Positions 4,377 to 33,721 of a DNA stretch of 64,000 nucleotides are shown one piece after another; positions within the stretch are counted from its first letter, which is position 1; each line of letters begins with the position of its first letter. The stretch is from contig JACPFP010000002.1 in the NCBI GenBank assembly GCA_016182915.1, positions 155,188 to 219,187 on the forward strand, in the 5' to 3' direction. Position numbers and translations under genes: made by a program. Below the pieces are notes generated by a model, which was not told where the DNA came from, did not search any database, and worked only from the letters and a program-made list of their open reading frames with translations. The DNA comes from Candidatus Dojkabacteria bacterium. Lineage in GTDB: Bacteria; Patescibacteriota; Dojkabacteria; SC72.

Positions 4377-4446
4377 TTAATGGCAACGATTTAAGTTATG
4401 ACGGTAAATATACTCTAAAAAGAGGAGAAAAAGAAGTGAGGATACA

Positions 4447-5172: not shown

Positions 5173-5217
5173 AATGGCAGTTTCTGTAAATTATGGGCAA
5201 ATCTGGTATATCATACA

Positions 5218-5850
5218 CTATATTTCCACCCTACTCCAACCGTTTTCGCTAATAACCAGATGATCTAGAAGTACAAGACCCACAATATCGAAACTTTTTT
5301 TGAGGTTTTTTGTAAATTCGATATCCTCATTACTCGGAGTGTGGTCTCCGGAAGGATGATTATGTGCAATAACTATAAACGCACAGTTCTGAGTAAGGGC
5401 TGGGAAGATAATATCCCTGGGTTTAACAGATATCCTGCTTAAACCACCGATCGCAATTGTCTGTTTTTTGAGAATCTCGTATCTCGCATTTAAAAATATG
5501 GCAACGAAGTGTTCCTTCTTGTATTTACTGATGTAACTGAGGATGTTCCACGCTTCCTGAGTGTTGATAACTCTGGTCTTCTTATCCTTATGTAGATTAT
5601 ATATTCTCACACCAAGCTCTATACCTGCCAAGATCTGCATCGCTTTCACCCTACCTACTCCCTTCACACTTTGTATTTCTAGGAAAGGATTTAGTCCTTG
5701 TGAAACAGAATGCTCAAGTGATGCTTCAACCCTCCTTGCAACCGTTCTAAAGTTATACCCTTTAACTCCATTTGACAGTATAATAGCAATCAAATCTTGA
5801 TTACTTAAAGCTCGAACTCCTCTCATTTGAAACTTCTCTCTAGGTTGCAT
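5218..5850 (-). CDS. radC: RadC-like JAB/MPN domain protein
   Basis: C-terminal JAMM motif HNHPSGDHTPSNED, with an N-terminal HhH-like region. Confidence 0.85.
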   Translation of the reverse strand: MQPREKFQMRGVRALSNQDLIAIILSNGVKGYNFRTVARRVEASLEHSVSQGLNPFLEIQSVKGVGRVKAMQILAGIELGVRIYNLHKDKKTRVINTQEAWNILSYISKYKKEHFVAIFLNARYEILKKQTIAIGGLSRISVKPRDIIFPALTQNCAFIVIAHNHPSGDHTPSNEDIEFTKNLKKSFDIVGLVLLDHLVISENGWSRVEI

Positions 5851-5884
5851 AGAGAAATTGTACAGGACGAAGATGAAATATTTC

Positions 5885-18819: not shown

Positions 18820-19374
18820 ATGCCTAAGAAAGTTAAAAAAGAGAATTTGAATCTGAAGTGGTACGTACTCAACGTCCAGTCAGGACACGAAAGTAGTATC
18901 GCAAAAGCAATACAGCAAAGAGTTGAAGCGACTGGCAGTGAAGACAAGATGTCTGAAATTCTAATCCCTACACAGAAAAAGATTGTTGTTAAAGGTGGAA
19001 AACAGAGTATCAAGGAAGAGAGAATCTTCCCGGGATATGTACTAATCAAGATGGATTTAAGCGACGAGACATGGAGTTTGATTGCAAATACAGAAGGAGT
19101 GAAGGGATTTGTTAAAGTTGATAAGTTCCCACGACCACTTCCAGAAAACGAAGTAAAAGCAATTATGAAATTCATGGAAGTTGAGCAACCAACATATCAA
19201 ACCTCATTCAGTGTTGGAGAAGCAGTTAAGATCAATGATGGTGCATTTGCAGACTTCATTGGAAGTGTACAGAGAATCGATGAATCGAAGGGGAAGATTA
19301 CAGTTTTGATATCATTTTTGGGCCGAGAAGCACCTGTTGAATTAGAATTCACCCAGGTAAGTAAAATTAAGTAA
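18820..19374 (+). CDS. nusG: transcription termination/antitermination factor NusG
   Basis: NGN domain (KWYVLNVQSGHE) and a C-terminal KOW domain. Confidence 0.95.
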   Translation: MPKKVKKENLNLKWYVLNVQSGHESSIAKAIQQRVEATGSEDKMSEILIPTQKKIVVKGGKQSIKEERIFPGYVLIKMDLSDETWSLIANTEGVKGFVKVDKFPRPLPENEVKAIMKFMEVEQPTYQTSFSVGEAVKINDGAFADFIGSVQRIDESKGKITVLISFLGREAPVELEFTQVSKIK

Positions 19375-19391
19375 GTTTATATTAAATAGTA

Positions 19392-19814
19392 ATGGCAAAA
19401 AAAGTAACAAAAGTTCTAAAACTACTCATCCCAGCAGGTGCAGCAACACCAGCTCCTCCAATTGGACCAACCCTTGCACCATATGGAATCAGTACACAAC
19501 AGTTCTGCCAGGAGTTCAACGAAAAAACAAGAGAAAATAATGGAGTTTTAACACCAGTAGTACTAACAATCTACGAGGATAGAACATTCACATTTATTAC
19601 AAAAACTCCACCTACATCGGAACTAATCAGAAGAGAGATAAAGATACCTAAGGGTTCAGCAAGTCCAAACCTACAGAAAGTTGGTAAGATTACGAAAGAT
19701 CAGGTAAAGAAGATTGCAGAAGCAAAGATGATAGACCTAAACACAACAAACTTAGACCAAGCCGTTAAGATTATAGAAGGAACGGCAAGACAGATGGGTG
19801 TTGAAGTAATTTAA
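19392..19814 (+). CDS. rplK: 50S ribosomal protein L11
   Basis: L11 family sequence (…PAPPIGPTLAPYGI…). Confidence 0.95.
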   Translation: MAKKVTKVLKLLIPAGAATPAPPIGPTLAPYGISTQQFCQEFNEKTRENNGVLTPVVLTIYEDRTFTFITKTPPTSELIRREIKIPKGSASPNLQKVGKITKDQVKKIAEAKMIDLNTTNLDQAVKIIEGTARQMGVEVI

Positions 19815-19835
19815 ATAATATTAGGAAGAATTAAC

Positions 19836-20525
19836 ATGGCACGAAGAGGAAAGAAATATATAAGTATTGCGAAAAAGGTTGAGAGAAAAGAGTACACTCT
19901 TGCCCAGGCAGTAAAGGCGATTAAAGCATCTTCATATTCAACTTTTGTTGGTTCTGCAGAACTACATGTGTCAGTAAACCTTCCTAAAGATAAGGATGCA
20001 AAATCAATTAAAGGAGCAGTCACTCTCCCCCACTCTGTTGCAAAAAAAGTCTCTGTTTATGTATTTACAACTCCTGAGAATGCTAAAGTAGCTTTAGAGG
20101 CAGGTGCAGATAAAGCAGGTCTTGAAGAATTAGTAAAAGAGGTACAAAGCGGAAAGATTAACTTTGATGTTGCAATTGCAACCCCAGATGTTATGGCGAA
20201 AATAGCCGCTTTAGGAAAAGAGTTGGGACCAAAGGGTCTTATGCCTAATCCAAAGACTGGGACCGTTACAACAGATGTAGCAGGAACCGTATCAGCATAT
20301 AAGAAGGGAAAGATGACATTCAAAGCCGACAGTAATGGTGGAATCCATGTTGGAGTAGGAAAGCTTTCCCTTGAAGATGCACAGATTGTTGAAAATATAA
20401 CAACCGCAGTAACTGCAATTGAGGAAGCTCTTGGTAAACAACTTTCAACTATTGTAAAGAGTACATATCTTGCCCCAACAATGGGTAAGGCTGTAAAGTT
20501 CAAGTTTGAGAAAGTGGCAGCTTAA
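19836..20525 (+). CDS. rplA: 50S ribosomal protein L1
   Basis: 229 aa with L1 family sequence. Confidence 0.95.
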   Translation: MARRGKKYISIAKKVERKEYTLAQAVKAIKASSYSTFVGSAELHVSVNLPKDKDAKSIKGAVTLPHSVAKKVSVYVFTTPENAKVALEAGADKAGLEELVKEVQSGKINFDVAIATPDVMAKIAALGKELGPKGLMPNPKTGTVTTDVAGTVSAYKKGKMTFKADSNGGIHVGVGKLSLEDAQIVENITTAVTAIEEALGKQLSTIVKSTYLAPTMGKAVKFKFEKVAA

Positions 20526-20565
20526 GGTTTCCACATATTTGTAATATACCAATTAGATTTCCTAC

Positions 20566-20811
20566 TTAGTCTCCAACTGTTTCAACCGAGGTTGTCATCA
20601 ACTGTACCTGTTTTTTCATTAAATACACTTCGTTTTGAAGATCTACTATATCTTTTTCAATATCTGCAAACTTGAGACTTATTATATACATCATCCTATC
20701 TAGTTTCTTATCCAATTTCTCATCTATCTCTTCCTTAAATGCCCCAAACCGCTTATCCAAGCTCTGATCTAGCATCTCCTGAATTTTCGAAAAGTCTTGA
20801 ATACTTAACAT
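20566..20811 (-). CDS. questionable small coiled-coil ORF antisense within rplA-rplJ intergenic/L10-leader region
   Basis: 81-aa K/E/D-rich ORF. The region is expected to hold the rplJ leader RNA, so the ORF may be spurious. Confidence 0.2.
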   Translation of the reverse strand: MLSIQDFSKIQEMLDQSLDKRFGAFKEEIDEKLDKKLDRMMYIISLKFADIEKDIVDLQNEVYLMKKQVQLMTTSVETVGD

Positions 20812-20938
20812 GTGTAAATGATAATAAATTACTATCTATATTGTACAGAACTGAAATGAAATCTATATGAAGTGAATACTCTTCCCCTACTACTCTACGC
20901 ATATAGATATACATTAGAAATATATATAGGTTAAAAGG

Positions 20939-20968
20939 TTGACATCATAGTTTTAATTGTAGTATCAT
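20939..20968 (+). promoter_or_regulatory. putative rplJL promoter (TTGACA ... TATCAT)
   Basis: TTGACA at 20939-20944 with a -10-like TATCAT at ~20963-20968 (18-nt spacer). Followed by an ~80-nt leader before rplJ. Confidence 0.45.
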
Positions 20969-21047
20969 CCCTACAGCCGAAGAAACATGGTACAAAAATA
21001 AATCCGTGTGAGGCAAAGAAATTTTTCTAAACTAAATCTATAAAAAT

Positions 21048-21572
21048 ATGTCTAAGAATAGAACTCAGAAATCCGAGTTACTTTCGCAGTATACAGACCT
21101 ACTCAAAAATAACGGAGGTTATCTTTTGGTAGACACAAGCGGTCTAGATACTCCAACTGTAACCAAATTTAAGATTGCTTTGAAAGAATCAGGTTCAGAA
21201 TATACAGTTATAAAGAACTCTGTTTTCAAAATTGCTCTCCAAGAAGCAAATCAACCTGTACAAACACAGGATTTTGATGGACAGACAGCACTAATCAGCT
21301 ATAAAGAAGATCCTACAACCGCAGCAAAATTGATAAAGGCACTACAAGCAGAAACTGAGAAGTTTGGAGCAAAGCTGGGAACAATAAATGGTGCCTATAT
21401 TGATGCCTCCCAAGTAATGCAACTTGCAGAGATACCTTCAAGAGAGGTTCTTCTTGCAAAACTACTCGGATCTATGGTCTCCCCACTCTCAGGAGTTATG
21501 AATGCTATAACAGGTAATGTGAGAGGATTCACTATGGTACTTAAGCAGCTTTCTGAAAAAGAAGCTAAGTAA
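21048..21572 (+). CDS. rplJ: 50S ribosomal protein L10
   Basis: 174 aa with L10 family sequence. Located upstream of rplL. Confidence 0.9.
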   Translation: MSKNRTQKSELLSQYTDLLKNNGGYLLVDTSGLDTPTVTKFKIALKESGSEYTVIKNSVFKIALQEANQPVQTQDFDGQTALISYKEDPTTAAKLIKALQAETEKFGAKLGTINGAYIDASQVMQLAEIPSREVLLAKLLGSMVSPLSGVMNAITGNVRGFTMVLKQLSEKEAK

Positions 21573-21602
21573 TAAATATTTAATTTAATTACACAACTAG
21601 CA

Positions 21603-22004
21603 ATGGAAGAGAAAAATTTACCAAAGCTATCAGCAGATGCACAGAAAGTTCTTGAAGCTGTAGAGAAAATGACAGTTTTAGAACTTGCAGATCTTGTCAA
21701 AGTAATGGAAGACAAGTTCGGAGTAAGCGCAGCCGCTCCAGTAGCCGTTGCAGCAGCTCCAGCAGCAGCAGCAGAGGAAGTTGAAGAGAAAACAATGTTT
21801 AACATTGTTCTTCAAGATGCAGGTGCAAACAAGATCAGCGTGATCAAGGTTGTAAGAGAGTTGACAGAACTAGGTCTCAAAGAGGCTAAAGATCTCGTTG
21901 ACGCAGGTGCAGGATCCGTTCTTAAGGAGAATGTACAGAAAGATGCCGCTGAGGAAGCAAAGAAGAAGTTTGAGGAAGCAGGTGCTAAGGTTGAACTTAA
22001 GTAG
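21603..22004 (+). CDS. rplL: 50S ribosomal protein L7/L12
   Basis: Ala-rich hinge ([17 protein letters not shown]) and a C-terminal L12 domain. Confidence 0.95.
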
Positions 22005-22028
22005 TTAGCTTTTCAAATGGAAATTGAA

Positions 22029-22054
22029 AGACCGGAGCAATCCGGTCTTTTTTT
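22029..22054 (+). terminator. rho-independent terminator after rplL
   Basis: AGACCGGA-gcaa-TCCGGTCT hairpin followed by TTTTTT. Confidence 0.8.
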
Positions 22055-22171
22055 ACCTCCTAAAATGATTGAAAATATGCCCCTTAAATGCTATAATTAC
22101 GACATAAATTCCTCACTATGCCCTAGGTACTTTTACCTAGAAAAATCAAATTAAATTAGAATTTTTAAAAT

Positions 22172-22828
22172 ATGACAGAACTAACCCAGTGGCTACTCTC
22201 TCATGGTATTTCTATGGCAGTTTTGGAGATATTAGTATTTGTGCCTATCCTCGCCACCCTTGTAAACCTATCCCGATATTTTATTGGGTTTAAATCCTTT
22301 GGAATCTATGCACCAATAATATTAGGTCTTTCATATAGATATACAGGCCTTAGATACGGTTTAATCATAACTCTTCTTGTGGTACTCTCCTCTCTCATTG
22401 GATACTCCATAATGCGAAGGATACGTATGCACTATCTAGCGAGAGTCGCTATAAACTACTTAATTGTTGCCATTATTCTTCTTTTCGGAATTGCGGGATT
22501 AGACAGTCTTGAAATTTTAGGCTTCACAAACTTTGAAAGCATCAATCCCCTCGCCCTTATCTCCATTGCCGCCCTTTCTGACTTCTTTATAAAAATGTAT
22601 GTAAAAAAGAGCATTGCTGCTACAGTTAGAGTTCTCCTCGAAACCGTTCTAATTTCTGTAATAGGATGGGTGTTGATCTCTTCTGAAACAATAATCGGTT
22701 TTATGTTGAGTAATCTATGGATGTTAGGTGCAATACTTCTCTTCAATCTTCTGATTGGTAGATATACAGGACTACGAATCAAAGAATATTTTAGATTCAG
22801 CTTCGTCGTCAAAAATGACAATAAATGA
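22172..22828 (+). CDS. polytopic (approx. 6-7 TM) membrane protein, partner of RimK-like ATP-grasp
   Basis: 218 aa, almost entirely hydrophobic helices. 14-bp overlap with the downstream ATP-grasp gene suggests translational coupling. Confidence 0.6.
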   Translation: MTELTQWLLSHGISMAVLEILVFVPILATLVNLSRYFIGFKSFGIYAPIILGLSYRYTGLRYGLIITLLVVLSSLIGYSIMRRIRMHYLARVAINYLIVAIILLFGIAGLDSLEILGFTNFESINPLALISIAALSDFFIKMYVKKSIAATVRVLLETVLISVIGWVLISSETIIGFMLSNLWMLGAILLFNLLIGRYTGLRIKEYFRFSFVVKNDNK

Positions 22829-24305
22829 ACTAATCCGTTTAAATAAAGAGGTTCTGGGAATTAATAGACGAAACCAGGCTTTCGTTCGTGAGTTTAATCC
22901 TCTATCTGCGAAAGTAATTGCAGATAACAAGATTATAACCAAAAGGGTTTTAGCGAAGGTTGGGATAAAAAGCGCCGAACTATATAAGGTTATTAGAACG
23001 AAAAAGCAGTTGGAATTCCTTGATTGGGATTCAATACCAAATAGTTTTGTTCTTAAACCAAACCAAGGTACAGGTGGTAATGGAATTGTTGTGTTCTACG
23101 GCAAGAAGAAGGGAAAGTACGAATGGATTAGACCAAACGGTACAACAATGGATCAGAAAGACCTGATCCTACATATTGAAAATATCCTTGATGGGAGATT
23201 TTCAATGGGTAATAGGAACGATCTCGCGATCATCGAAGAAAGAATCAAAACAGACAGCACATTAAAACCCTTCACATATAAGGGAGTCCCTGATGTTAGA
23301 GTCATAGTTTTCAATAAGATTCCACTTCTGGCAATGCTAAGACTTCCAACCAAACGATCAAACGGTACTGCAAACCTTCACTCAGGAGCTATATGTGTAG
23401 GAATCGATATTGCCTCTGGAATTACAAGAGAAGGAATGTACTTAAAAAAGAGCCCTATCATTGAGGATACCTATACAAGCACAGATACCACCCTTGATCT
23501 TGAAGATAATATCCCTCTAATAGGTATTCAAATCCCATATTGGAATGAAATACTTGAGATCGCTGTTAAATCCCAGCAGGCAAGCGGATTAGGTTATATA
23601 GGTGTAGATATCGCTTTAGACAAAGAGAAGGGCCCTATGGTGCTTGAAATCAACGCAAGGCCGGGCTTAGGTATACAGGTAGCAAACAAAATCGGATTAA
23701 GAGCCAGATTAGAACGAGTAAAAGGGATTGAAGTTAAGAGTTTGAGACATGGAGTAAGACTTGCAAAGAATATTTTCGGAGGCGAGGTTGAGGAGGAGAT
23801 TGAAAATATCAGCGGTAAGACAGTTGTTAACCTCATAGAAAAGATTCTCCTTTTCCATAAACCAGAGATAGAGATGTCTAAAAAGAAACAGAAAAAAATC
23901 CTTGCTAAAAAGGAAGTCGTTAAAGCAATGCTTGATACCGGAATAATAACCTCACGTATTGACTGGGGAATAGCATCAAGAATTGGATACTTTAAGGCCT
24001 TGGACTTCTTTAGAAAGCTTGGAATTCCTGAGACCTTCCCAACACTCAAAGATGCACAGGATTATATTGATAAAACTGGAAGTGAAAACATGCTGCATCC
24101 TGAAATTATCAGACTCGCTAAAATCAGTGATGAGACTGGAAACCACATCCTTCCCGTAGTAGAGGTAGAGATAAAAATTGCGGGTGAGGTTAAAAAGGTT
24201 GAAATGGTAGTTAGCAGACAACAAGCCATCATATACCCAGTCCTGATAGGGAGAAAAGAGCTGAATAATTACCTTATAGATACAAGTAAAACATTTACAA
24301 ATTAA
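22815..24305 (+). CDS. RimK-like ATP-grasp amidoligase fused to C-terminal retropepsin-like (DTG) aspartic peptidase domain
   Basis: ATG at 22815 (MTINELIRLNKEVLGINRRNQ...). ATP-grasp core motifs (VLKPNQGTGGNGIVV, VRVIVFNKIPLLAMLRLPT, GVDIALDKEKGPMVLEINARPG). The C-terminal ~150 aa carry a DTG motif (AMLDTGIITSRID) in a retropepsin-like context. Confidence 0.7.
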   Translation: MTINELIRLNKEVLGINRRNQAFVREFNPLSAKVIADNKIITKRVLAKVGIKSAELYKVIRTKKQLEFLDWDSIPNSFVLKPNQGTGGNGIVVFYGKKKGKYEWIRPNGTTMDQKDLILHIENILDGRFSMGNRNDLAIIEERIKTDSTLKPFTYKGVPDVRVIVFNKIPLLAMLRLPTKRSNGTANLHSGAICVGIDIASGITREGMYLKKSPIIEDTYTSTDTTLDLEDNIPLIGIQIPYWNEILEIAVKSQQASGLGYIGVDIALDKEKGPMVLEINARPGLGIQVANKIGLRARLERVKGIEVKSLRHGVRLAKNIFGGEVEEEIENISGKTVVNLIEKILLFHKPEIEMSKKKQKKILAKKEVVKAMLDTGIITSRIDWGIASRIGYFKALDFFRKLGIPETFPTLKDAQDYIDKTGSENMLHPEIIRLAKISDETGNHILPVVEVEIKIAGEVKKVEMVVSRQQAIIYPVLIGRKELNNYLIDTSKTFTN

Positions 24306-24328
24306 CCTTAATACTTTAACCTCAGGAT

Positions 24329-25303
24329 ATGGAAAAAGATTTTTTGAAAATAGCCGGGAATGTACATCTCGCATACTACATTGAAGCTGCTGATATCCTT
24401 GGAATCAAGTATGAAGTTATATTTAGAAACCTAACCGCTCGTTTTGAACATCAAGGTAAACACTGGTTTATAAACAATACCGCCCTACCAGTAAATAACG
24501 CACCCAGCTCAAGATTAGCCAGAGGAAAACACTTTGCAAGTAGAATTCTCGATTTAGCAGGTATCCCAGTACCCCAACAAGCTAGTGTTGAGAATGTAGA
24601 GGAAGCAATCTCTTTCTTTAACGAGCATAATGAGGTTGTAGTTAAGCCTTCTCAAAATCTTGGAGGAAAGGGTATATCAATCCTTCCGGCCAATGCAGAG
24701 GATCTATCCAAGGCATACGAGTATGCTAAAGGCTACGATAAACATGGAAAGGTATTAATTGAGAAGTATATCCACGGAGATAATTATAGACTTCTAGTAG
24801 TCGGAGACACAGTCGTTGGTGTTGTAAGGAGGCTTCCTGCCACTATCACAGGCAGTGGTAGTTCAACTATAAAACAGCTAATTGAAGAGAAAAATATAGA
24901 GAGAAAGGCCCGAATGCTCATGCCAATACCTATAGATGAAGAAACAGTTAAACACCTTCAACATAAAGGGTTTACACTAGACACAGTTCTTCCTGCCGGC
25001 GTGATAACAACAGTCAGATCAAACACAAACCTAACAACAGGTGGTACAACTGAAGAGTGCAGTGAGATTGTCCACCCATACTATAAAGATATTGCAGTAA
25101 AGACAATAAAAGCTCTGGATTTGGAGTTCGCAGGAATAGATTTGATTACCAAAGATATCACTACCCCATCCGAATGTGCCGTTAACGAAGTGAATTACAA
25201 CCCAGGACTAAGACTTCACTATAAAGTAGATAAAGGAGAGATTAAAAAGGTTGCCATTCCTATTATGGAATATATTAGAGATCGCTATGCGAAAACGAAG
25301 TAG
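24329..25303 (+). CDS. stand-alone cyanophycin-synthetase-like (CphA G-domain-like) ATP-grasp ligase
   Basis: YRLLVVGDTVVGVVRRLPATITGSGSSTIKQLIEE..., TNLTTGG and AGIDLITKDITTP resemble CphA ATP-grasp motifs. No Mur-ligase domain is present. Confidence 0.65.
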   Translation: MEKDFLKIAGNVHLAYYIEAADILGIKYEVIFRNLTARFEHQGKHWFINNTALPVNNAPSSRLARGKHFASRILDLAGIPVPQQASVENVEEAISFFNEHNEVVVKPSQNLGGKGISILPANAEDLSKAYEYAKGYDKHGKVLIEKYIHGDNYRLLVVGDTVVGVVRRLPATITGSGSSTIKQLIEEKNIERKARMLMPIPIDEETVKHLQHKGFTLDTVLPAGVITTVRSNTNLTTGGTTEECSEIVHPYYKDIAVKTIKALDLEFAGIDLITKDITTPSECAVNEVNYNPGLRLHYKVDKGEIKKVAIPIMEYIRDRYAKTK

Positions 25304-25362
25304 TTCGATCTATCTTGCTCCGCTCTTTTAACTAAATATTTATAACTCAAACCCGTGTTTAT

Positions 25363-26340
25363 ATGCACAACAACTATTTCGAAGTAAGCGCTGAAAACAA
25401 CTTTGAACTTGGATTACAATTAGGAAAACTGTTTAGAGAAAATTTAAATGAGACCTTAAAGGAGGCTCATCTCAATCCTAACTGGGATCAAGTGGTTGAA
25501 CAATCTTCAATGTATCTCAAGAAGACAAAAGATTTGTTCCCACACCTTATTGAAGAACTCAAAGGATATGCTAAAGGAGCAGACGTCGATTTTATGAATT
25601 TATGGGCGCTTAGCCTTGAGGATGAATTATACTTTGAAGAAAAGTGTTCAACAGTGATTACAAACAATGGCATGTTAGTTGGACACAACGAAGACTATAA
25701 GGATGCAGAAGAAAAAGTCTGTATACTTAAAAAAACGATTAAAGGAAAAACAATCCTCGAACTATACTATCTACATACCCTAGGCGGGAATTCAATCTCT
25801 ATAAACTCAAACGGATATATCCACGCAATTGACTCACTTTCACAATCAGATCGTAAAGTCGGAATTCCCAAGAATGTGATTGCAAGATGGTTCTCTGAAA
25901 CATCATCTCCTTCGGATGATTTTCAAAAATTATCTACTTTAGATAGGTCTTCAGGATTTTGTCATAATATAGTAAACATCACAGGAGAAGTAATAACTAT
26001 TGAATCTACTGCCACAAAACAACTGATTGAGACCATAGAAACTCCTTTCGTACATACAAACCACTATTTAACAGACTTAAAGACTTTTGAAGCCAACGAT
26101 AATTCAACCTGCACATTTGAAAGATTCAAAAGTGCAAGAGAAAATATTAAAGAGCAAATGAAAGTTACAGAGATGCAATCACTCCTTTCATTGAATAATA
26201 ATGGTCCTCAGGCTAGCCTCTTTAACGAAAGAACAGTTGGAAGAATGATTATAGATAATACAGAAAGATTGGCGTATATATGGCTAGGTAGAGAAAAGGA
26301 GAAAGGTTGGATTAAATATAATCTCAATTTTATTGTATGA
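25363..26340 (+). CDS. Ntn-hydrolase-like protein (tentatively peptidase C45/acyltransferase-like)
   Basis: A candidate nucleophile Cys in EEKCSTVITNNGMLVGHNEDY is reminiscent of the C45/linear-amide hydrolase family. The family call is tentative. Confidence 0.4.
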   Translation: MHNNYFEVSAENNFELGLQLGKLFRENLNETLKEAHLNPNWDQVVEQSSMYLKKTKDLFPHLIEELKGYAKGADVDFMNLWALSLEDELYFEEKCSTVITNNGMLVGHNEDYKDAEEKVCILKKTIKGKTILELYYLHTLGGNSISINSNGYIHAIDSLSQSDRKVGIPKNVIARWFSETSSPSDDFQKLSTLDRSSGFCHNIVNITGEVITIESTATKQLIETIETPFVHTNHYLTDLKTFEANDNSTCTFERFKSARENIKEQMKVTEMQSLLSLNNNGPQASLFNERTVGRMIIDNTERLAYIWLGREKEKGWIKYNLNFIV

Positions 26341-28024
26341 TAGATATATGAAAACACAGGTACTCCAAGGTGCAAACCTTATAAATACAGTGACAACTGT
26401 AAATATAACCCTTGATACAACTCCAAAAACAGAGTTTATAGAAGAAATCCAGAAGATTCATCCACTCTTTTTAGATGAGTTTATGGTGGAAGGTAAGACG
26501 ATAAGTATACAAACCAAACTCCCCCATCTATGGAAGGAAGCAGCAGTTGCCCTAAATAACTACTCCAACGGAGAATGGAGCTATGACCTAACAAAGTCAT
26601 TCCTATATGAGACACTAATCAAAAAACAAATTCTCTCTATGTCCACCATTCCAATACTGAGAGCAGCCCACGAACTAGGTTATGAAACAACCCAATATTT
26701 TATAGAGGAGGGCTTCACACCTGAAGGAGTTCTTAAAAAGTATAATAGATACTATGCAATTGGCGTAGGACAGGAAACTGAAACTATGATCTCAATAGCA
26801 AGCAGTGGTGATTCCAACCTTGCAAAGATGATTCAGGAGGATAAGTGGCTCACCAATATTATGCTTGACAGATTAAAACTCCCTATTGCTAAATGGGAAC
26901 TAATCCCAAGCAAGGATAGCCTTAAGGAGCTACACGAGAAGTATAGAAAGCCATATGTAATCAAACCTGTCGGTCTCACAGGCGGACACGGCGTTACAAC
27001 AAACATAGAAAGCCTTGATCAAGCTAAATCTGCCTACGATGTTGCAAATAAATCTATTGAATCAAAGGAGAGAAAAGATTGGCAGAAAAAGATAATGATA
27101 CAGGAACAAGTTTCTGGAGAAGACTACAGGCTTCTCGTTATCAATGGAGTCTTGGAGATTGTAACAAAAAGAATACCTGCCTTCGTAGTCGGTAACGGAA
27201 GCTCAACCATAGAAGAGTTAATAGTAGAAACTAATAAAGACCCACGAAGAGACACTTCCCTCCCAACCCATATCTTAAAACCAATCGTTATAGACGACCA
27301 GCTTAAAAGCTTCCTTAAAGAACAGGATCTCAATCTAAAGCATATCCCTAAAGCAGACGAGAAAGTATATGTAAGAAAGGTAGCAAGTATGAGTCAGGGA
27401 GGAATTACTGAAGACTTCACAGACCAGGTAAGTAAACAGATTAGATATATTGTAGAATCCCTTGCTAAATCCCTGCACGCCTATGCACTAGGGGTAGATA
27501 TCATCTGCCAGGACATATCAAAACCATTAACAATGGAAAACGGGTCAATCATTGAGTGCAACACAATGCCAGAATCATATCTTAATGCCTTCCCTGTAAT
27601 TGGAAAACAGTATCCTAATATAGGAAAAATCGTAGTAGAGGGATTAATCGGAAAGAAACCTAAAACAAAGAAATATGTATATATTGGAAAAAATATGAAG
27701 AAATTTGAGACTTTCCTTGCATTAAATACGGATGAGTCGGAAGATAGAGTTGGAATATATAGAAACGGAGAAGTAATTATTAATAACGAAGTTATAAACA
27801 GGTCGGTAGAAACTTGGAGAGCTATAGAGGCTCTTAAACTTAACTCATCCCTCTCTGTAATAGTCCTCCACTATCTATCGTTTGATGAGGTAGAAGAGTA
27901 TGGACTGGGTTTTGACTATACAGATGCAGTGGTTATCGAAAAAGAGCTTGAATCAACGAAACAATATTCCACAATACAAGGTCTTTCAAACATGGGAGTT
28001 GTTACAAAGGTGGAGACTATTTAG
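26333..28024 (+). CDS. cyanophycin-synthetase-like protein with N-domain plus ATP-grasp G-domain, lacking Mur-ligase M-domain
   Basis: DYRLLVINGVLEIVTKRIPAFVVGNGSSTIEELIVETNKDPRRDTS... matches the CphA G-domain GDGxSTIxELI...DPRRG pattern. An ~200-aa N-terminal domain is also present. The protein is 563 aa against ~900 aa for CphA. The track start is TTG at 26333, with an alternative ATG at 26348. Confidence 0.7.
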   Translation: MYDRYMKTQVLQGANLINTVTTVNITLDTTPKTEFIEEIQKIHPLFLDEFMVEGKTISIQTKLPHLWKEAAVALNNYSNGEWSYDLTKSFLYETLIKKQILSMSTIPILRAAHELGYETTQYFIEEGFTPEGVLKKYNRYYAIGVGQETETMISIASSGDSNLAKMIQEDKWLTNIMLDRLKLPIAKWELIPSKDSLKELHEKYRKPYVIKPVGLTGGHGVTTNIESLDQAKSAYDVANKSIESKERKDWQKKIMIQEQVSGEDYRLLVINGVLEIVTKRIPAFVVGNGSSTIEELIVETNKDPRRDTSLPTHILKPIVIDDQLKSFLKEQDLNLKHIPKADEKVYVRKVASMSQGGITEDFTDQVSKQIRYIVESLAKSLHAYALGVDIICQDISKPLTMENGSIIECNTMPESYLNAFPVIGKQYPNIGKIVVEGLIGKKPKTKKYVYIGKNMKKFETFLALNTDESEDRVGIYRNGEVIINNEVINRSVETWRAIEALKLNSSLSVIVLHYLSFDEVEEYGLGFDYTDAVVIEKELESTKQYSTIQGLSNMGVVTKVETI

Positions 28025-29408
28025 AAACCCTCTTCTTCTTAATCATCCCCGAAACTTTTAAGCTTCCGAATATTAGCGCAGCAAGGCCAACGGTAATTCC
28101 TGCAAACATAAGAGTTTTTTTAGGAACCTTATTTATCATTCCTATAGGATTTTTATTATTTTCCCTTTTGTATTCATCAAACTTCTTCAAAAGATAACTC
28201 TGACCAGGGAAATATGGGAGTCTATTGATCATATCCCTCACTACCCTCCTATTACTTACCCTCTTTCCCTTTACACTCACATACTGTGCATATATATCGT
28301 ATGTGCGTTTTGCAATATCTGACCAGTCCCAGTTGTCAACTTTATGCCTTGCTCTTTTACAAATATCTGTATAATCATTCTGTGAAAGATCGGCAATCTT
28401 TCTAACACTTTTCGCGAACTCTTTTGGAGATGCCTTCCTATCTATCCATATACCCACAGAGCTATCAACAAGCTCGTCAATCGTCTCGTTTGAAAGCCCT
28501 ACGATAGGTTTTCCAGCAGCCAACGCCTCGATAACCGACAAAGCCTGCACCTCAGCAATAGAGGCTGATACGAAAATATGTGATTTTTCCAAATACCCCG
28601 GTATTTTATCCGGGCTAACTCCATCTATAATCTCTACATTTCTATACTTTGAAGCCATCTTCCTGAAACTTTTCTCGTAATCCTCGAAAAGGAAACGTCC
28701 AATTAGAGTCAATCTGAAGTTCTTTGGGAAATATTTCATAACTTTCAAGAGATATTCCTGATTTTTTCTCTTTGAAATTGATCCTACGAAGATGAGATTT
28801 CTTTCCTTTTTTTTCTGAGATTGTAGTTCCAAAGAATTTAATCTTTCAAGAAACCTACCATTCGGAACAATATGCATATTTCCTGTGTATCCATAGTTAC
28901 GAAGTTCATTGGAAGCCACCTGGTTTAAAGCTATGACAGCAGTGCAATTCTTTAGATAATCCTGAAAATACTGCTTAAAGATCATCTCATTCATCATCTT
29001 GTAAACAAAGGAATCTGCTGATACATCAAAGAAACTTGCTATTTTGGTTGGGAGATAGTGAGAGGTATAGAAATATGGGATATTGTTATTGACAGCCCAA
29101 ATCTGCCCAATGAACGGTGCTAACCATCCACTATGCGAATGAACAATATCAGGTTTAAAGCTATCCAGAAAATCAAAGAAGAATTGGACTGTGTTAGGAG
29201 TGAATACTCCTAGCTCTCCACTTTCATAATCTCCACCCTGTAGTGTAACCTTAAGCATCCCATCCTCTTTATATATCCTGTTCTCTGTACCTGTGAAAAC
29301 AAGTGCTGTCTCTGCATATTCTGACATTGCCTGTGAAATTTCCATTGCAACCCTCGTCTCCCCTCCTAGGGTCTCTTCGGTTCCTGCAGCTAAATAGACA
29401 ACTTTCAT
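28017..29408 (-). CDS. GT4 family glycosyltransferase with C-terminal TM anchor
   Basis: GT-B fold motifs (EVQALSVIEALAAGKPIV) and a C-terminal hydrophobic helix LMFAGITVGLAALIFGSL. Confidence 0.85.
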   Translation of the reverse strand: MKVVYLAAGTEETLGGETRVAMEISQAMSEYAETALVFTGTENRIYKEDGMLKVTLQGGDYESGELGVFTPNTVQFFFDFLDSFKPDIVHSHSGWLAPFIGQIWAVNNNIPYFYTSHYLPTKIASFFDVSADSFVYKMMNEMIFKQYFQDYLKNCTAVIALNQVASNELRNYGYTGNMHIVPNGRFLERLNSLELQSQKKKERNLIFVGSISKRKNQEYLLKVMKYFPKNFRLTLIGRFLFEDYEKSFRKMASKYRNVEIIDGVSPDKIPGYLEKSHIFVSASIAEVQALSVIEALAAGKPIVGLSNETIDELVDSSVGIWIDRKASPKEFAKSVRKIADLSQNDYTDICKRARHKVDNWDWSDIAKRTYDIYAQYVSVKGKRVSNRRVVRDMINRLPYFPGQSYLLKKFDEYKRENNKNPIGMINKVPKKTLMFAGITVGLAALIFGSLKVSGMIKKKRVSK

Positions 29409-30235
29409 TACTTAGTATTAATAAACTCTTTAATAACATTGTATGATTTCTCCGGCTCAAAGGAAAGATGTCTGTGATTAAGAGCATTTATAATAACGGG
29501 CTTAACATGGAGCATATCTGCAATCTCCTGGGTAAACTGCTTGAAATACCACGGTTCATTAGCATTATATATAACCAAACTCTCCCCTTTGAAGTTATTA
29601 AGTCCCTTCTGATCTAGATCCTTCAGTGTAAAAACCGGTGTCATACTACTCTCAACGTCCCCATTCATTGCGTCTAAAAATATGAGATTTATATAGTACC
29701 TTGCCTTAGACAGATACAATCTCGAAGTGAGAAGCTCCAAAGCATATATAAGTTTAATATTAAATCTTAAGATAGCCAAAGGTATCCTTAACTTCCTAAA
29801 ACCATCGTAAACAGAAGCATTAAGACTTAATCGGGACTTCGTTTCAAAGATATTCTTCCTGCTGTGAAAACCCGATACAACAATATTCTTGCTTGGATTA
29901 ATATACCCCATTGATATAGCATGCAAGATGAATGTAACACCAAGAGAATACCCTGCTACACCGTAATCCTTAAATTCAAAAGAGTTTATGAATTTGGAGA
30001 TAAAAAGAACATATGAATCAAAATCTTTGACCTTAAGCAACTGTTTTGACTTACTCCCCCATCCAGGAAGATTTGCTCGTATAACTCTAATACCATCATC
30101 TTTCATAAGTTTGGTAATCCCATCAAAAGCAATACTTGATGATCCCCAAGGCGGTATAAAAAAGAGCGGGAATCCCTCCCCCTCATCTAGGTATGTAATC
30201 TCAATTCCATCAATCTTTCTACTTAGGTACTCCAT
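29408..30235 (-). CDS. alpha/beta hydrolase fold protein
   Basis: GxSxG nucleophile elbow (GYSLG). 275 aa, cotranscribed with the GT4 gene. Confidence 0.75.
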   Translation of the reverse strand: MEYLSRKIDGIEITYLDEGEGFPLFFIPPWGSSSIAFDGITKLMKDDGIRVIRANLPGWGSKSKQLLKVKDFDSYVLFISKFINSFEFKDYGVAGYSLGVTFILHAISMGYINPSKNIVVSGFHSRKNIFETKSRLSLNASVYDGFRKLRIPLAILRFNIKLIYALELLTSRLYLSKARYYINLIFLDAMNGDVESSMTPVFTLKDLDQKGLNNFKGESLVIYNANEPWYFKQFTQEIADMLHVKPVIINALNHRHLSFEPEKSYNVIKEFINTK

Positions 30236-30322: not shown

Positions 30323-31264
30323 GTGAAATACCTAATCCTTGATAAAAAGCAGAGAATACATATAGAGAATAAGTACTCATATGTACTAACTAGAATAGTC
30401 GAAGAACTGGAAAAGATGGGAGCAGAATATAAAGTGGCATACAATGACGAGATTGAAGTAGCATTTATAGAAGGAAAGACTACAATAAGTGTACAGGGTG
30501 AAAATATAGAGAATTTTTCTCACATAATGTTCAGAGGAATGAGGTTAGACAGGCAGATTGAATATGAAACACGAAAGATCATTGTAGACTATATTGAGCA
30601 ATATAATATCTCAAACCCAAGCAAAGCCATTAAGGTTCAAAATCTTAAAGCCATAAAAAGGACTCATTTCTACGATAAGATATTCATAACCCACCTATGT
30701 GTACAGAATGGAGTTGCAATAATGAACACACTTTATAGGCCTATGGGTAACTACTCCGTGGAACATTCGCCTCTTAAATACCCTATGATTGTAAAACAGT
30801 ACGCAGGAGAGAACGATATAAGAGTGATTGAAGGAAAGGAGACCGTTAAAAAGAATGTCTTTCTCGTAAATAGCCCTGAGGAATTCCAGCAGGAGCACCT
30901 TAGAGATAGAAATCTCTCTGAATACATAATTCAGGAATTCATACCCTCAGGTGAAGACTTCAGAGTATTCGTTTCCAAAGGAAAAGCCCATTCAGGTTTT
31001 GGAAGAAAAGCTACCACCAACTTCATGACTGTAAATGCCGGTGAATATGCCAAACTCGACTTAGAGAAAAGGTCAGATCTCAAAGAATTTGCCCAGAAGG
31101 TTTCCTCAGTTTTCGGAGCAGACTTCATCGCAGTTGATATGATGATGAAAAATGGAAAACCCGTGCTACAAGAAATTAGCTTCAATCCAGGCTTTAAAGC
31201 CTTTGAAACCAAAACCGATGGTGAGTTTATTAATATGGCAAAGGTAATAATCGAATCTCTTTAA
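30323..31264 (+). CDS. ATP-grasp family ligase (RimK/GshB-like)
   Basis: GTG start. ATP-grasp features (DFRVFVSKGK..., ADFIAVDMMMKNGKPVLQEISFNPG). Confidence 0.7.
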   Translation: MKYLILDKKQRIHIENKYSYVLTRIVEELEKMGAEYKVAYNDEIEVAFIEGKTTISVQGENIENFSHIMFRGMRLDRQIEYETRKIIVDYIEQYNISNPSKAIKVQNLKAIKRTHFYDKIFITHLCVQNGVAIMNTLYRPMGNYSVEHSPLKYPMIVKQYAGENDIRVIEGKETVKKNVFLVNSPEEFQQEHLRDRNLSEYIIQEFIPSGEDFRVFVSKGKAHSGFGRKATTNFMTVNAGEYAKLDLEKRSDLKEFAQKVSSVFGADFIAVDMMMKNGKPVLQEISFNPGFKAFETKTDGEFINMAKVIIESL

Positions 31265-32418
31265 ATCCCTAATCTCTTGAAAATCTGGTTAACCTTCTCA
31301 GGATCTAATACTAGTTTTGCCTTTGGAATAAGGCCATCTTCAACCCAGGAGACCTGCTTCATACTAATCTTTCCAGCATACAGCTTTTCGTAGAGGGAGG
31401 AATCCTTCGCAATTGCCTTCCTAACTCTCCTATATCCCCTAAAATACACGACATCCTTATAATATAGTCCTGGTAGTGATGTATCGCCTAACCCCCTTTT
31501 AACGCGGTATGCGAAGTCAAATGCGAGATTCTTAGCAAGAAACGCTGTCATTGCATTATATAGGTCCCTGAAACTTACAGCCTCCCCCCAATACAATAAC
31601 CAACTAAAGGTTGCTTTCCTCTTCAAGGCATCAAAAGTGAGGACTTTCATAAGTTCCTCATTATATGTTGCCAATCCCTCTTCAATATCCTGATATTCCG
31701 GCAAATTGGATTTATATAGAACGGGTACTCCAGAGTGGATTCCGTTATATGACCTTAATACATGCGTCCCAATCTCATGAACAATCGATTTCCTAAGGTC
31801 GATTTTGGAGCGGGAGATATCCCCAGAAAGCAGTACTTCCTTCCTCTTTACCCCTACTTTCATAGCCTCATCTGCAATTCTTCCAGACTTAGCAACGGTC
31901 CAATCAGAAAACCCCAATTCACCTAGAAATTTAGTCATAATCCTCTCTATTTCAGCATATTCATACTCTCTTCCCTCTTTCTTCTGTTCTACAAGGTCGT
32001 AGTTTGAAACTTTTCCCCTTAAAACGAGAGATGCATTTTTGAATAGTCTTGCTGATGGTCTACCAAACCTCTTCCTAGAGATCTCTGTAATTAACCGATT
32101 ATCCCCTACTGCATTAAGCATATCGTTAACCTCTGATTTAGATTCTATGAGTTTCAGATAGAATTCTGAGATTCTTGGATCAACGTCAGAAATACTGGTT
32201 ATATCAGCTAACTCACGAAGGAGAGAGGAATTAACATTCTTAACAGGCTTATATTTAAAGTTAGGACTGTATGTCTCCGATTCAATAAACTTCTGCTTCT
32301 CCTCATCCAAGTTTATAGGCGTAAATACGTATGAAGTTGGGAGTTTAAGAAGATCTAGTTTCGCAACAACCTCTTCCTGTGTAACAACTCTTTTTCCCCT
32401 TCTACTAAATATAAACAC
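31261..32418 (-). CDS. DUF1704/MATCAP-like QEGLA-motif putative metallocarboxypeptidase
   Basis: EEGLATY (a QEGLA-like motif) and an HExxxH-type motif VHEIGTHVL. 4-bp convergent overlap with the ATP-grasp gene. Confidence 0.65.
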   Translation of the reverse strand: MFIFSRRGKRVVTQEEVVAKLDLLKLPTSYVFTPINLDEEKQKFIESETYSPNFKYKPVKNVNSSLLRELADITSISDVDPRISEFYLKLIESKSEVNDMLNAVGDNRLITEISRKRFGRPSARLFKNASLVLRGKVSNYDLVEQKKEGREYEYAEIERIMTKFLGELGFSDWTVAKSGRIADEAMKVGVKRKEVLLSGDISRSKIDLRKSIVHEIGTHVLRSYNGIHSGVPVLYKSNLPEYQDIEEGLATYNEELMKVLTFDALKRKATFSWLLYWGEAVSFRDLYNAMTAFLAKNLAFDFAYRVKRGLGDTSLPGLYYKDVVYFRGYRRVRKAIAKDSSLYEKLYAGKISMKQVSWVEDGLIPKAKLVLDPEKVNQIFKRLGI

Positions 32419-32464: not shown

Positions 32465-33721
32465 CTACCAATCTAAATCAGAGAGGAAGGCTCCAAGAAG
32501 AAACCAAACCCAGGGTGTCATGAAAAAATCGTATGTTATATTTCCGACGACGATGATTGAAAAGAGGCCCAATATAAGCGGAGACTTCCTTTTAAGTAAC
32601 TCAAGACCTAGGGAAATCACTACAAAACCAAAGGATAGAATCCCAATAATTCCCCCTTCTGCAAGCATTTTGGCATATACGGAATGTGGGGTAGCAAACT
32701 GGACCCTACTATCTATATTTTCCCTGTAATATTGAGGGAAATTCCCTATTCCAATTCCTAACACAGGATGTTTAAGAAAGATTTTAATAGATTGAATCCA
32801 GTAGTTTATATGTTCATTCGCTGAAAAATCGGCAAGGGTCAACCTTGTTAAAGCAAGAGGAAGGAATGAGGAATACACACGGCCTTTAACACCATCCTTA
32901 CGCATTATGAATCTATGACCATAGTAGACAATGAATCCTACTATTAATGCTAAATAGCCCGTTCTTGATGCCGTTAGAAGAATCATAGCAAGAGATAAAA
33001 TAAGAACAGATGTCGATAGAAGCATACTCTTTCTCTTATTAATCAGATCTACAGAAAAAACTGAAATCATAGCAAGAAAAACAGCAAATACATTAGTATC
33101 AATCATTAATGAACTAGGCCTGAGAAACAGTCCATTATCGGCAGTCCTAATATTGAATGCTGAGGCAGAAACAAAACCGCCTTTATCAAATACGCTAATA
33201 AACCATCCTAAATCCTGATTCATTCGATAATCCACATACTGCGTTAATCCAACAATAATCAGGATGAGAGCAGAAAAAAGTAATCCTTTCTTAAAAGTAT
33301 CACTGTCGCTCTTTTTAGGTAGTACAATTCCGACAAGGAATAGAGAGATGAGTATAGAATAATATCCTAACCCCATAATACTCTCATTAAGATTGTAAGA
33401 GGTCAGTAAAGATATAGCGGAAGCTAGGAGAAAGACACCTAAAGAGATAAATACAACCTTATACCGGATGAAAGCGGTGACAACAGCATCGAAAAGAGTA
33501 CGGAGACTTTTTCGGCAATATATCAAGTAGATTGCTAATAGAACCAAATATACAACTATCCATAATACTTTAGTCAGAGTTCTTGGACTTATCTCTCCTT
33601 CTGCTAAAATATCAACTATAAATGAGAGCCTTCCGGAAATAAGAATAAATAGAAATACGGATAGTATATATCCCATATTATGATGATATCTCTTTAGTAA
33701 ATACTCTATCTCCACTTGCAA
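32465..33721 (-). CDS. O-antigen ligase/polymerase-like (Wzy_C) polytopic membrane protein
   Basis: >10 TM helices. LTASRTGYLALIVG and HSVYAKMLAEGGIIG match the Wzy_C family R/H motifs. The true start is probably the internal Met near 33676. Confidence 0.6.
   Translation of the reverse strand: MQVEIEYLLKRYHHNMGYILSVFLFILISGRLSFIVDILAEGEISPRTLTKVLWIVVYLVLLAIYLIYCRKSLRTLFDAVVTAFIRYKVVFISLGVFLLASAISLLTSYNLNESIMGLGYYSILISLFLVGIVLPKKSDSDTFKKGLLFSALILIIVGLTQYVDYRMNQDLGWFISVFDKGGFVSASAFNIRTADNGLFLRPSSLMIDTNVFAVFLAMISVFSVDLINKRKSMLLSTSVLILSLAMILLTASRTGYLALIVGFIVYYGHRFIMRKDGVKGRVYSSFLPLALTRLTLADFSANEHINYWIQSIKIFLKHPVLGIGIGNFPQYYRENIDSRVQFATPHSVYAKMLAEGGIIGILSFGFVVISLGLELLKRKSPLILGLFSIIVVGNITYDFFMTPWVWFLLGAFLSDLDW

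Follow-up and report, generated by a model that had tools for sequence, protein, structure and literature searches.

Within a 64,000-nucleotide stretch of a Candidatus Dojkabacteria genome (contig JACPFP010000002.1; the whole stretch is referred to below as the window), two overlapping genes at 22172-22828 and 22815-24305 probably represent, by analogy with characterized systems, the Patescibacteria form of the Rlo module, in which a membrane-docked amidoligase carries a tethered trimming protease. The canonical module, RloABC, is the retropepsin-like osmotic stress tolerance operon of Pseudomonas aeruginosa and other Gammaproteobacteria (PMC12239564). Homology points to an RloC-type ligase with a C-terminally fused retropepsin-like peptidase of the RimB/RloA family as the product of the second gene, and to the seven-transmembrane (7TM) half of RloB as the product of the overlapping gene upstream. 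The proteins themselves are in public databases already, annotated generically as 'alpha-L-glutamate ligase-like protein', 'sugar-transfer associated ATP-grasp domain-containing protein' or '7TM domain-containing protein'. The two genes and the elements of the fusion protein are as follows, with the basis of each assignment in brackets.

22172-22828, plus strand: 7TM membrane protein, 218 aa (open reading frame (ORF) list, Pfam).
22815-24305, plus strand: ligase-protease fusion, 496 aa and stop codon (ORF list, start reassigned to ATG).
22866-23723, plus strand: RloC-type ATP-grasp amidoligase domain, aa 18-303 (PF14397, TIGR02291).
23760-23822, plus strand: acidic linker between the two domains, aa 316-336 (conservation in homologues).
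23805-24302, plus strand: retropepsin-like domain (RimB/RloA family, PF05618), aa 331-496 (profiles, AlphaFold2 (AF2) model, Foldseek).
23934-23942, plus strand: codons of the catalytic motif D374-T375-G376 (conservation and alignment to the RloA-type DTG).
23964-24077, plus strand: subfamily-specific two-helix insert, aa 384-401 and 411-421 (AF2 secondary structure).
24249-24254, plus strand: G479-R480 of the LIGR motif (conservation and alignment).

The original prediction placed a DTG aspartyl-protease domain at the C-terminus of the ligase polypeptide, and several independent comparisons bear this out. The C-terminal 165 residues match the NCBIfam RloA3 retropepsin model at E 4.5e-9, and a profile built from 31 C-terminal domains matches the PDB entries 9g59 (the crystal structure of RloA2), 9g58 (RloA) and 2pma (Lpg0085) at E 2e-5 to 7e-5, with 2e-5 for 9g59/9g58. 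Searching the PDB with the AF2 model of the domain (pLDDT 86.3), Foldseek placed 2pma, 9g59 and 9g58 at the top (E 2e-6 to 9e-6); HIV-1 protease and Ddi1 (E 2e-4 to 1e-3) came next, along with other retropepsins. Precomputed Pfam annotation assigns PF05618 to the window protein and to some of its homologues, and more distant fusions from the candidate phyla radiation (CPR) exceed the PF05618 threshold with 28.9-38.1 bits. We looked in particular for the two outcomes that would speak most directly against the domain, a lack of similarity to retropepsin-like peptidases and a DTG lying in a non-conserved loop, and found neither. Across the 120 nearest homologues the aspartate of the motif is kept in 118, the threonine in all and the glycine in 113, and the motif therefore does not sit in a variable loop.

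Conservation extends to the remainder of the fold. The glycine of the LIGR motif is present in 120/120 homologues and is followed by arginine in 112 and lysine in 8; the motif aligns with the LLGR of a Legionella RloA-like protein and of 2pma, so placed that G479-R480 is, from the alignment, the counterpart of the retropepsin G-R-(N/D) motif. LIGR also resembles what we take to be the IIGRN of HIV-1 protease. A conserved hairpin (aa 433-455) occupies the position where a flap is expected, with I431, R433, P447 and V448 invariant, and the two-helix insert, modelled with pLDDT 93-95, lies between the strand that follows the DTG and this flap-like hairpin. The insert region (aa 384-421) finds only a low-confidence hhalign pairing with the canonical RloA-like protein. 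Elsewhere in the 64-kb window we found no second retropepsin-like gene and no second 7TM_transglut gene.

The N-terminal 300 residues of the fusion protein match PF14397 (ATPgrasp_ST) over its full length, at E 1e-64 and 218 bits against a cutoff of 31.4. The ligase motifs on which the original prediction rested (GINRRN, MLRLPT and EINARPG) are all present, and its description of the protein as a RimK-like ATP-grasp enzyme stands insofar as the domain is a RimK-related ATP-grasp ligase. It is not RimK proper: on TIGR00768 it scores 47 bits against a cutoff of 143.4, and its sequence places it in the RloC / TIGR02291 / ATPgrasp_ST branch. In 34 diverse homologues K81, G85, G88, G90, D265, E278 and N280 are invariant and E141/E142 nearly so; the invariant lysine and the glycine-rich loop belong to a K-P-x-x-G-x-x-G-x-G motif, and E278 and N280 to an E-x-N motif. 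We take K81, the glycine loop, D265, E278 and N280 to be the catalytic, ATP- and Mg-binding residues, as general knowledge of the ATP-grasp fold would have it. The closest solved match of the ligase was E. coli RimK, at E 0.0015 over only 53 residues, and no RloC structure occurred among the structure matches of the domain. The 496-aa product contains neither a transmembrane (TM) segment nor a signal peptide (maximum 19-residue hydropathy 1.3).

The 7TM gene predicted upstream is likewise present. Its 218-aa product, 100% identical to NCBI HYV12_01180 from a Candidatus Dojkabacteria metagenome-assembled genome (MAG), matches Pfam PF14402 (7TM_transglut) at E 6e-14 and 52.5 bits (cutoff 25), and hydropathy together with the positive-inside rule predicts seven TM helices, with the N-terminus outside (about 12 residues ahead of TM1) and a basic C-terminal tail on the inner side. 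An AF2 model built with 35 homologues is all-helical (pLDDT 89.6). The NCBIfam RloB model is matched only at positions 314-507 of 508, and the N-terminal periplasmic, inactive transglutaminase domain of RloB is not present, so that by sequence the protein is the C-terminal, seven-helix half of RloB. Two invariant motifs, R-M-H-Y (aa 85-88, 22424-22435) and S-D-F-F-x-K (aa 136-141, 22577-22594), lie in or near predicted cytoplasmic loops, and both are candidates for a ligase contact site or a catalytic site.

The overlap of the two genes can be read directly from the DNA. The fusion gene's ATG (22815-22817) precedes the end of the 7TM stop codon TGA (22826-22828) by 14 nt, which gives the 14-bp overlap that had been noted. 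The ORF list begins the fusion gene at TTG 22755; we rejected this start in favour of ATG 22815, where an identical 496-aa database protein begins with ATG and where the N-termini of homologues align.

A tblastn search of plasmids identified a canonical rloA-rloB-rloC operon on Legionella adelaidensis plasmid NZ_LR134414.1, against which all three parts of the window module could be compared. The ligase is 41% identical to Legionella RloC over 311 aa (E 4e-76), the protease profile aligns with the 152-aa Legionella RloA-like protein at hhalign 95.8% (E 8e-9) with DTG, RPV and GR in register, and the 7TM profile aligns with residues 309-505 of the 508 of Legionella RloB at hhalign 97.3%. Legionella rloB and rloC overlap as well, by 4 nt, and the junction of a membrane gene followed by a ligase gene is therefore common to the window module and this distant canonical operon.

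Searching for the same fusion in other genomes, as the original prediction had proposed, we found it to be far from rare. At E <= 1e-5 the database search gave 2,923 homologues; each of the best 120 has a length of 480-499 aa, and those with names are Candidatus Dojkabacteria (WS6). A scan of one genome per GTDB species yielded 597 relatives, and nearly all of the best 80 loci among these match over residues ~5-492. The clearly named loci among them belong to Dojkabacteria, Moranbacteria, Kerfeldbacteria, Paceibacteria, Woesebacteria and Microgenomates. In 78/80 loci the gene immediately before the fusion gene, in the same orientation, is a 7TM_transglut gene, and 33 of the 61 evaluable 7TM-fusion junctions overlap, with gaps of <=30 nt in 16 more (start codons being chosen heuristically). 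A library-wide hidden Markov model search with the C-terminal domain placed full-length fusions in many separate 50%-identity clusters. The rarity that the original prediction implied thus does not hold: the two-gene module is standard across Patescibacteria, and a protease-ligase hybrid of the Rim system, the natural RimB-RimK hybrid DP2392 of Desulfotalea psychrophila, has already been purified and is proteolytically active on poly-glutamylated RpsF (PMC11957791). That the fusion is an artefact of assembly, frameshift or gene calling that joined two genes, as the existence of separate ligase and protease genes elsewhere might suggest, has next to no probability. The gene is a single uninterrupted ORF in the window, and we rejected the artefact because the same full-length architecture occurs in hundreds of independent assemblies from several CPR classes, complete chromosomes included.

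The architecture also varies within the CPR. A split form keeps the same order, the ligase (295 aa) and then the protease (146 aa) being encoded by separate genes, and triple fusions add a further domain to ligase and retropepsin: MATCAP (P0182, 916 aa, and an 800-aa protein at 3474-5876 in locus L059) or YdjC (P0177, 688 aa). The C-terminal region of another protein (P0208, 854 aa), about 400 aa long, has no Pfam match. Some CPR 7TM partners, 516-553 aa long, have a PKD domain at the N-terminus, where proteobacterial RloB has its inactive transglutaminase domain. Such partners lie at the following places (strand not given).

L026, 6443-8050: PKD-bearing 7TM partner.
L040, 6359-8020: PKD-bearing 7TM partner.
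L059, 1870-3420: PKD-bearing 7TM partner.
L062, 316-1926: PKD-bearing 7TM partner.

In these sequences the 7TM core appears constant and the outside domain variable. The Woesebacteria-like 7TM partners have an unassigned extension of about 90-125 aa. We did not accept the labels 'uncultured Gammaproteobacteria', 'Bdellovibrionales' and 'Saccharibacteria' that several MAG contigs bear, since these loci group with Woesebacteria, Moranbacteria and Dojkabacteria; MAG titles look unreliable for taxonomy, for example in L002, L003, L020, L021, L037 and L061, whose sequence and gene order match those of Dojkabacteria, Moranbacteria or Woesebacteria.

Several observations weigh against reading the two genes as an Rlo-like ligase with a trimming protease. 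The PF05618 score of the window protein itself is 25.9 bits, just under the cutoff of 27. The best NCBIfam match of the ligase, TIGR02291 ('alpha-L-glutamate ligase-like protein'), stays below its cutoff (289.5 against 314.2 bits), which makes the ligase a family member but, by the NCBI threshold, no equivalog, and RloC-type chemistry is ascribed to it by analogy. Foldseek returned nothing below E = 1 for the 7TM model against the PDB, and hence no solved relative; the best matches were weak and NqrD/RnfA-like, with TM-scores about 0.35, and we drew no functional inference from them. In 8/120 homologues the DTG is non-canonical (DTS, DTN, DTT, HTG or NTG). The basic residues that line the poly-Glu substrate channel of RloA (K46, R114 and R137), which we mapped by their offset from the catalytic aspartate and by the PDB-profile alignment, correspond to M372, L446 and Q469 in the window protein. 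In all 120 Dojkabacteria homologues a hydrophobic residue (F, M, Y, L or I) stands in place of K46; the DTG is followed by V or I and not A, and R137 has no equivalent in most of them. At the R114 position 107/120 have R or K, but the window protein has leucine. Fusions from other CPR mostly retain these features: K or R in place of K46 (13/14), alanine after the DTG (10/14) and the R114 equivalent (13/14). With its poly-Glu-binding positions altered, the Dojkabacteria protease may therefore have a substrate other than poly-glutamate.

These substitutions also bear on whether the domain cleaves anything. RimB, the retropepsin-like endopeptidase that removes the glutamates placed on ribosomal protein S6 by RimK, stimulates RimK to make poly-glutamate, an effect that does not depend on tail removal (PMC11957791), and by the same token the retropepsin-like domain of the fusion could be mainly a regulatory or dimerization module that activates or scaffolds the ligase, with proteolysis secondary or lost in Dojkabacteria. 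The loss there of the K46 and R137 equivalents and of the alanine after the DTG, the eight divergent motifs and a large two-helix insert beside the active-site strand would suit such a module. Yet the near-complete retention of the DTG residues, and of a GR pair with R or K in all 120 homologues, would be hard to explain if the site were dead, and we regard a mainly regulatory domain as unlikely.

A further possibility concerns the linker between the two domains. Its consensus, L-A-K-N-(L/I)-F-G-G-E-(V/I)-E-E-x-I-E-x-I-S-G-(K/R), lies outside both Pfam domains, and F321, G322, G323, E326, E330 and G334 are kept in 119-120 of the 120 homologues. The linker is without counterpart in the alignment with unfused RloC, which stops at query aa 309, and it could serve as a hinge, a docking element or a self-cleavage site. 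If the last, the fusion would be a self-processing polyprotein whose protease cuts the acidic segment FGGEVEEEIE (aa 321-330) and frees itself from the ligase, as retroviral proteases do. The near-invariance of a segment outside both domains is consistent with such a role, as is its glutamate-rich composition, Glu-rich sequences being what members of this family cleave (PMC12239564, PMC11957791), and split ligase and protease genes in the same order do exist. RloA, however, needs at least eight consecutive glutamates (PMC12239564), and no run of glutamates in the linker exceeds three; purification of Desulfotalea RimBK yielded a hybrid protein (PMC11957791); and the poly-Glu-binding residues are altered in the window protein. 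Self-processing accordingly strikes us as improbable, and we retain a membrane-docked ligase with a tethered protease as the preferred reading.

Genetic work on the canonical operon suggests how such a module might operate. P. aeruginosa lacking its three secreted RloA proteases shows hypo-osmotic lethality and cell-shape, biofilm and antibiotic phenotypes; deletion of rloB or rloC suppresses the defects of this mutant; and RloA cuts runs of >=8 Glu in vitro (PMC12239564). RloA is thus genetically required to counteract RloB and RloC, which offers a model for the role of the protease in the fusion. We propose that the ligase would dock on the cytoplasmic loops of the 7TM protein and use ATP to add amino acids singly to a carboxylate acceptor, its product being a short peptide or a poly-amino-acid tail; glutamate is the default guess for the added amino acid, by analogy with RimK. 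The protease would act in the cytoplasm, because the polypeptide has neither signal peptide nor TM segment and the protease is fused to an ATP-dependent ligase. Tethered protease domains would pair into an active homodimer, as retropepsins must, and the paired protease would cut the growing chain and so set its length, recycle it or release it, in a manner comparable to that of RimB towards RimK. Fusion would provide one protease domain per ligase domain and hold it beside its partner, which may be of advantage to a lineage unable to keep a secreted protease close to the cell. The 7TM core, as the constant partner, might be an anchor, an acceptor-presenting protein or an exporter, and the outside domain would be optional: transglutaminase-like in Proteobacteria, PKD in some CPR and absent here. 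The 'membrane-associated peptide tagging' of the original prediction is, on the strength of the RimK/RimB and RloABC work, a reasonable and plausible suggestion.

The genes around the module would fit a role in peptide building and trimming. Downstream of the fusion gene, and around the start of the unit, we assigned the following features.

24329-25303, plus strand: second ATP-grasp ligase, 324 aa (TIGR02068 positions 204-471, E 1e-64).
25363-26340, plus strand: C45-family autoproteolytic acyltransferase/hydrolase, 325 aa (NF040521 127.8 bits, cutoff 85).
26333-28024, plus strand: third ATP-grasp ligase, 563 aa, final gene of the operon (NF010623 positions 185-572, E 4e-68).
30323-31264, plus strand: RimK-family ATP-grasp, 313 aa (PF08443; TIGR00768 51.7 bits).
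31261-32418, minus strand: homologue of MATCAP/QEGLA-type metallocarboxypeptidases, 385 aa (PF08014 E 4e-31; TIGR02421).
22030-22056, plus strand: terminator-like hairpin GACCGG-AGCAAT-CCGGTC followed by a T run, after rplL (direct sequence reading).
22069-22097, plus strand: sigma-70-type promoter-like site, TTGAAA, 17 nt, TATAAT, with TG before the -10 (consensus match only).

Much of this neighbourhood recurs. The conserved order in Dojkabacteria is rplJ, rplL, 7TM, fusion, 324-aa ligase, ~560-aa ligase and RimK-like ligase, followed on the opposite strand by MATCAP and MreB genes; in the window the MATCAP gene is convergent with the RimK-like gene. The second ATP-grasp ligase follows the fusion gene in Dojkabacteria, with related ligases in this place in many other CPR loci. 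The third is conserved in Dojkabacteria loci, with the RimK-like gene directly after it in other members of the group, and other CPR classes have at least one extra ATP-grasp ligase, and sometimes MATCAP, after the fusion gene. The C45 gene between the two cyanophycin-synthetase-like ligase genes was found in 1/81 loci, that of the window genome only, and therefore looks like a recent insertion into the operon. Taken with the RimK-like/MATCAP pair close by, the downstream CphA-like ligases and C45 peptidase suggest that peptides would be both built and trimmed, in a pathway of several steps.

Other neighbours raise the alternative that the module modifies a cell-surface glycopolymer or lipid, attaching an amino acid to a sugar acid or a lipid head group, and does not build peptides. 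The Pfam name of PF14397 is 'sugar-transfer associated ATP-grasp', the ligase has a membrane partner, and genes for a GT4 glycosyltransferase (28017-29408) and a Wzy_C protein (32465-33721) lie nearby. Against this, the GT4 gene, the adjacent 275-aa gene and the Wzy_C gene are present in only 3, 2 and 1 of the 81 loci, respectively, while ATP-grasp ligases and MATCAP recur, and a protease domain implies a peptide bond to cut; we consider glycopolymer or lipid modification very unlikely and continue with a peptide-building ligase. The GT4 and 275-aa genes (28017-30235, minus strand) separate the third ligase from the RimK-like gene, which are adjacent in most other Dojkabacteria, and the 275-aa gene has weak NCBIfam matches of alpha/beta-hydrolase type.

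The module and the three genes after it form a series of five plus-strand genes, arranged head to tail between nusG-rplK-rplA-rplJ-rplL (18820-22004) and the convergent glycosyltransferase gene. The hairpin after rplL would, as a terminator-like element, separate the ribosomal-protein operon from the 7TM/fusion module; it is absent from the list of a terminator scan whose stated criteria it apparently meets. The promoter-like site beyond it, with 11/12 matches the best in 21900-28300, lies 75 nt upstream of the 7TM start. With a hairpin and T run followed by the best promoter-like site, the five genes appear to be transcribed as a unit of their own.

The module adjoins rplJ-rplL (L10, L7/L12; 21048-22004), lying directly downstream of them in Dojkabacteria, while Woesebacteria-like loci have these genes on the other strand, as far as a few kb downstream of the fusion; the loci near rplJ-rplL are L001-L014, L044, L050, L052, L056, L066 and L068-L078. 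This proximity may reflect retained synteny or a link to ribosome modification, RimK being a modifier of ribosomal protein S6. Between rplA and rplJ, an antisense ORF (20566-20811, minus strand) encodes 81 charged residues, possibly a coiled coil, with no Pfam match; at the corresponding place a related genome (L001, 2106-2750) has a 214-aa plus-strand gene of no Pfam family.

What Rlo acts on in the cell, and what RloB and RloC do, are questions (PMC12239564) that a natural variant of the kind described here would narrow: in this lineage the transglutaminase-like outer domain and the secretion of the protease appear dispensable, and the 7TM core beside the ligase does not. The two small genes (218 and 496 aa) may also be a convenient target for biochemistry and structure determination, and they draw attention to a conserved grouping of peptide-ligase and peptidase genes in the CPR, whose genomes otherwise encode little biosynthesis. 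Should the function prove identical to that in Pseudomonas, the result extends a known system only incrementally; given RimBK and RloABC, a widespread module of this kind is not surprising in kind. More tentatively, and with considerable doubt, we raise the possibility that Rlo-type systems work from the cytoplasmic side, with a core of 7TM protein, ligase and retropepsin whose product would be synthesized and trimmed intracellularly, either ahead of export or in place of it. In CPR this core would then head a multi-ligase, multi-peptidase line (three further ATP-grasp enzymes, C45 and MATCAP) building a non-ribosomal peptide or poly-amino acid for the envelope of ultra-small, apparently periplasm-less cells, with a product other than poly-Glu in Dojkabacteria.

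A literature search, which did not cover Iyer et al. 2009, where these Pfam families were reportedly defined, returned no paper describing this fusion or tying the Rim or Rlo systems to CPR. Among known systems, the more distant can be set apart readily. PADLOC found no model match to an anti-phage defence system for the eight cluster proteins submitted. The downstream ligases at 24329-25303 and 26333-28024 share ATP-grasp peptide-ligase domains with cyanophycin synthetase, at E 1e-64 to 4e-68 to CphA models, but cover only positions about 181-572 of the about 870 of CphA; with coverage this partial and scores far below the equivalog cutoffs, we rejected cyanophycin synthesis for both. The retropepsins (HIV-1 protease and the RVP domain of Ddi1; MEROPS clan AA) share with the window protease the Foldseek-matched fold, a DTG on the active-site strand and a motif of two hydrophobic residues followed by G-R near the C-terminus, but identity is only about 12-15%, and the window domain differs in its two-helix insert, its fusion to a ligase and the I or V in place of A after the DTG.

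RimBK comes closer, as it also joins a RimB-family retropepsin-like protease and a RimK-related ATP-grasp ligase in one cytoplasmic polypeptide. There, however, the protease is N-terminal, whereas it is C-terminal in the window fusion, whose ligase is of RloC/ATPgrasp_ST type and not RimK proper. No 7TM partner has been reported for RimBK, and most RimBK genes occur in Flavobacteriales and Rhodobacterales (PMC11957791). Given the reversed order, the other ligase subfamily, the lack of a reported 7TM protein and the different hosts, RimBK and the window fusions are most likely independent events, which would make the latter another instance, apparently of separate origin, in which a ligase is joined to the protease that reverses its action.

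The closest counterpart is RloABC itself. All three modules of the window system are homologous to RloA, the 7TM half of RloB and RloC, and in both the window and Legionella the membrane gene lies immediately ahead of the ligase gene and overlaps it. The differences lie chiefly in the protease, which in RloABC is the product of a separate upstream gene and is secreted with a signal peptide; here it forms the C-terminal part of the ligase, has no signal peptide and is thus cytoplasmic, carries the two-helix insert and, in Dojkabacteria, is without the K46 and R137 equivalents and the alanine of DTGA. The membrane protein of the window in turn lacks the ~300-aa inactive transglutaminase domain of RloB, and the host is a member of the Patescibacteria, whereas RloB is reported to be 96% proteobacterial (PMC12239564). 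The window module is therefore not a canonical RloABC operon, because it has neither a separate secreted protease nor the transglutaminase-like domain of RloB, and it is not a RimBK hybrid, because its ligase belongs to another subfamily and its domains stand in the reverse order; it is a distinct member of the Rlo/Rim ligase-protease superfamily.

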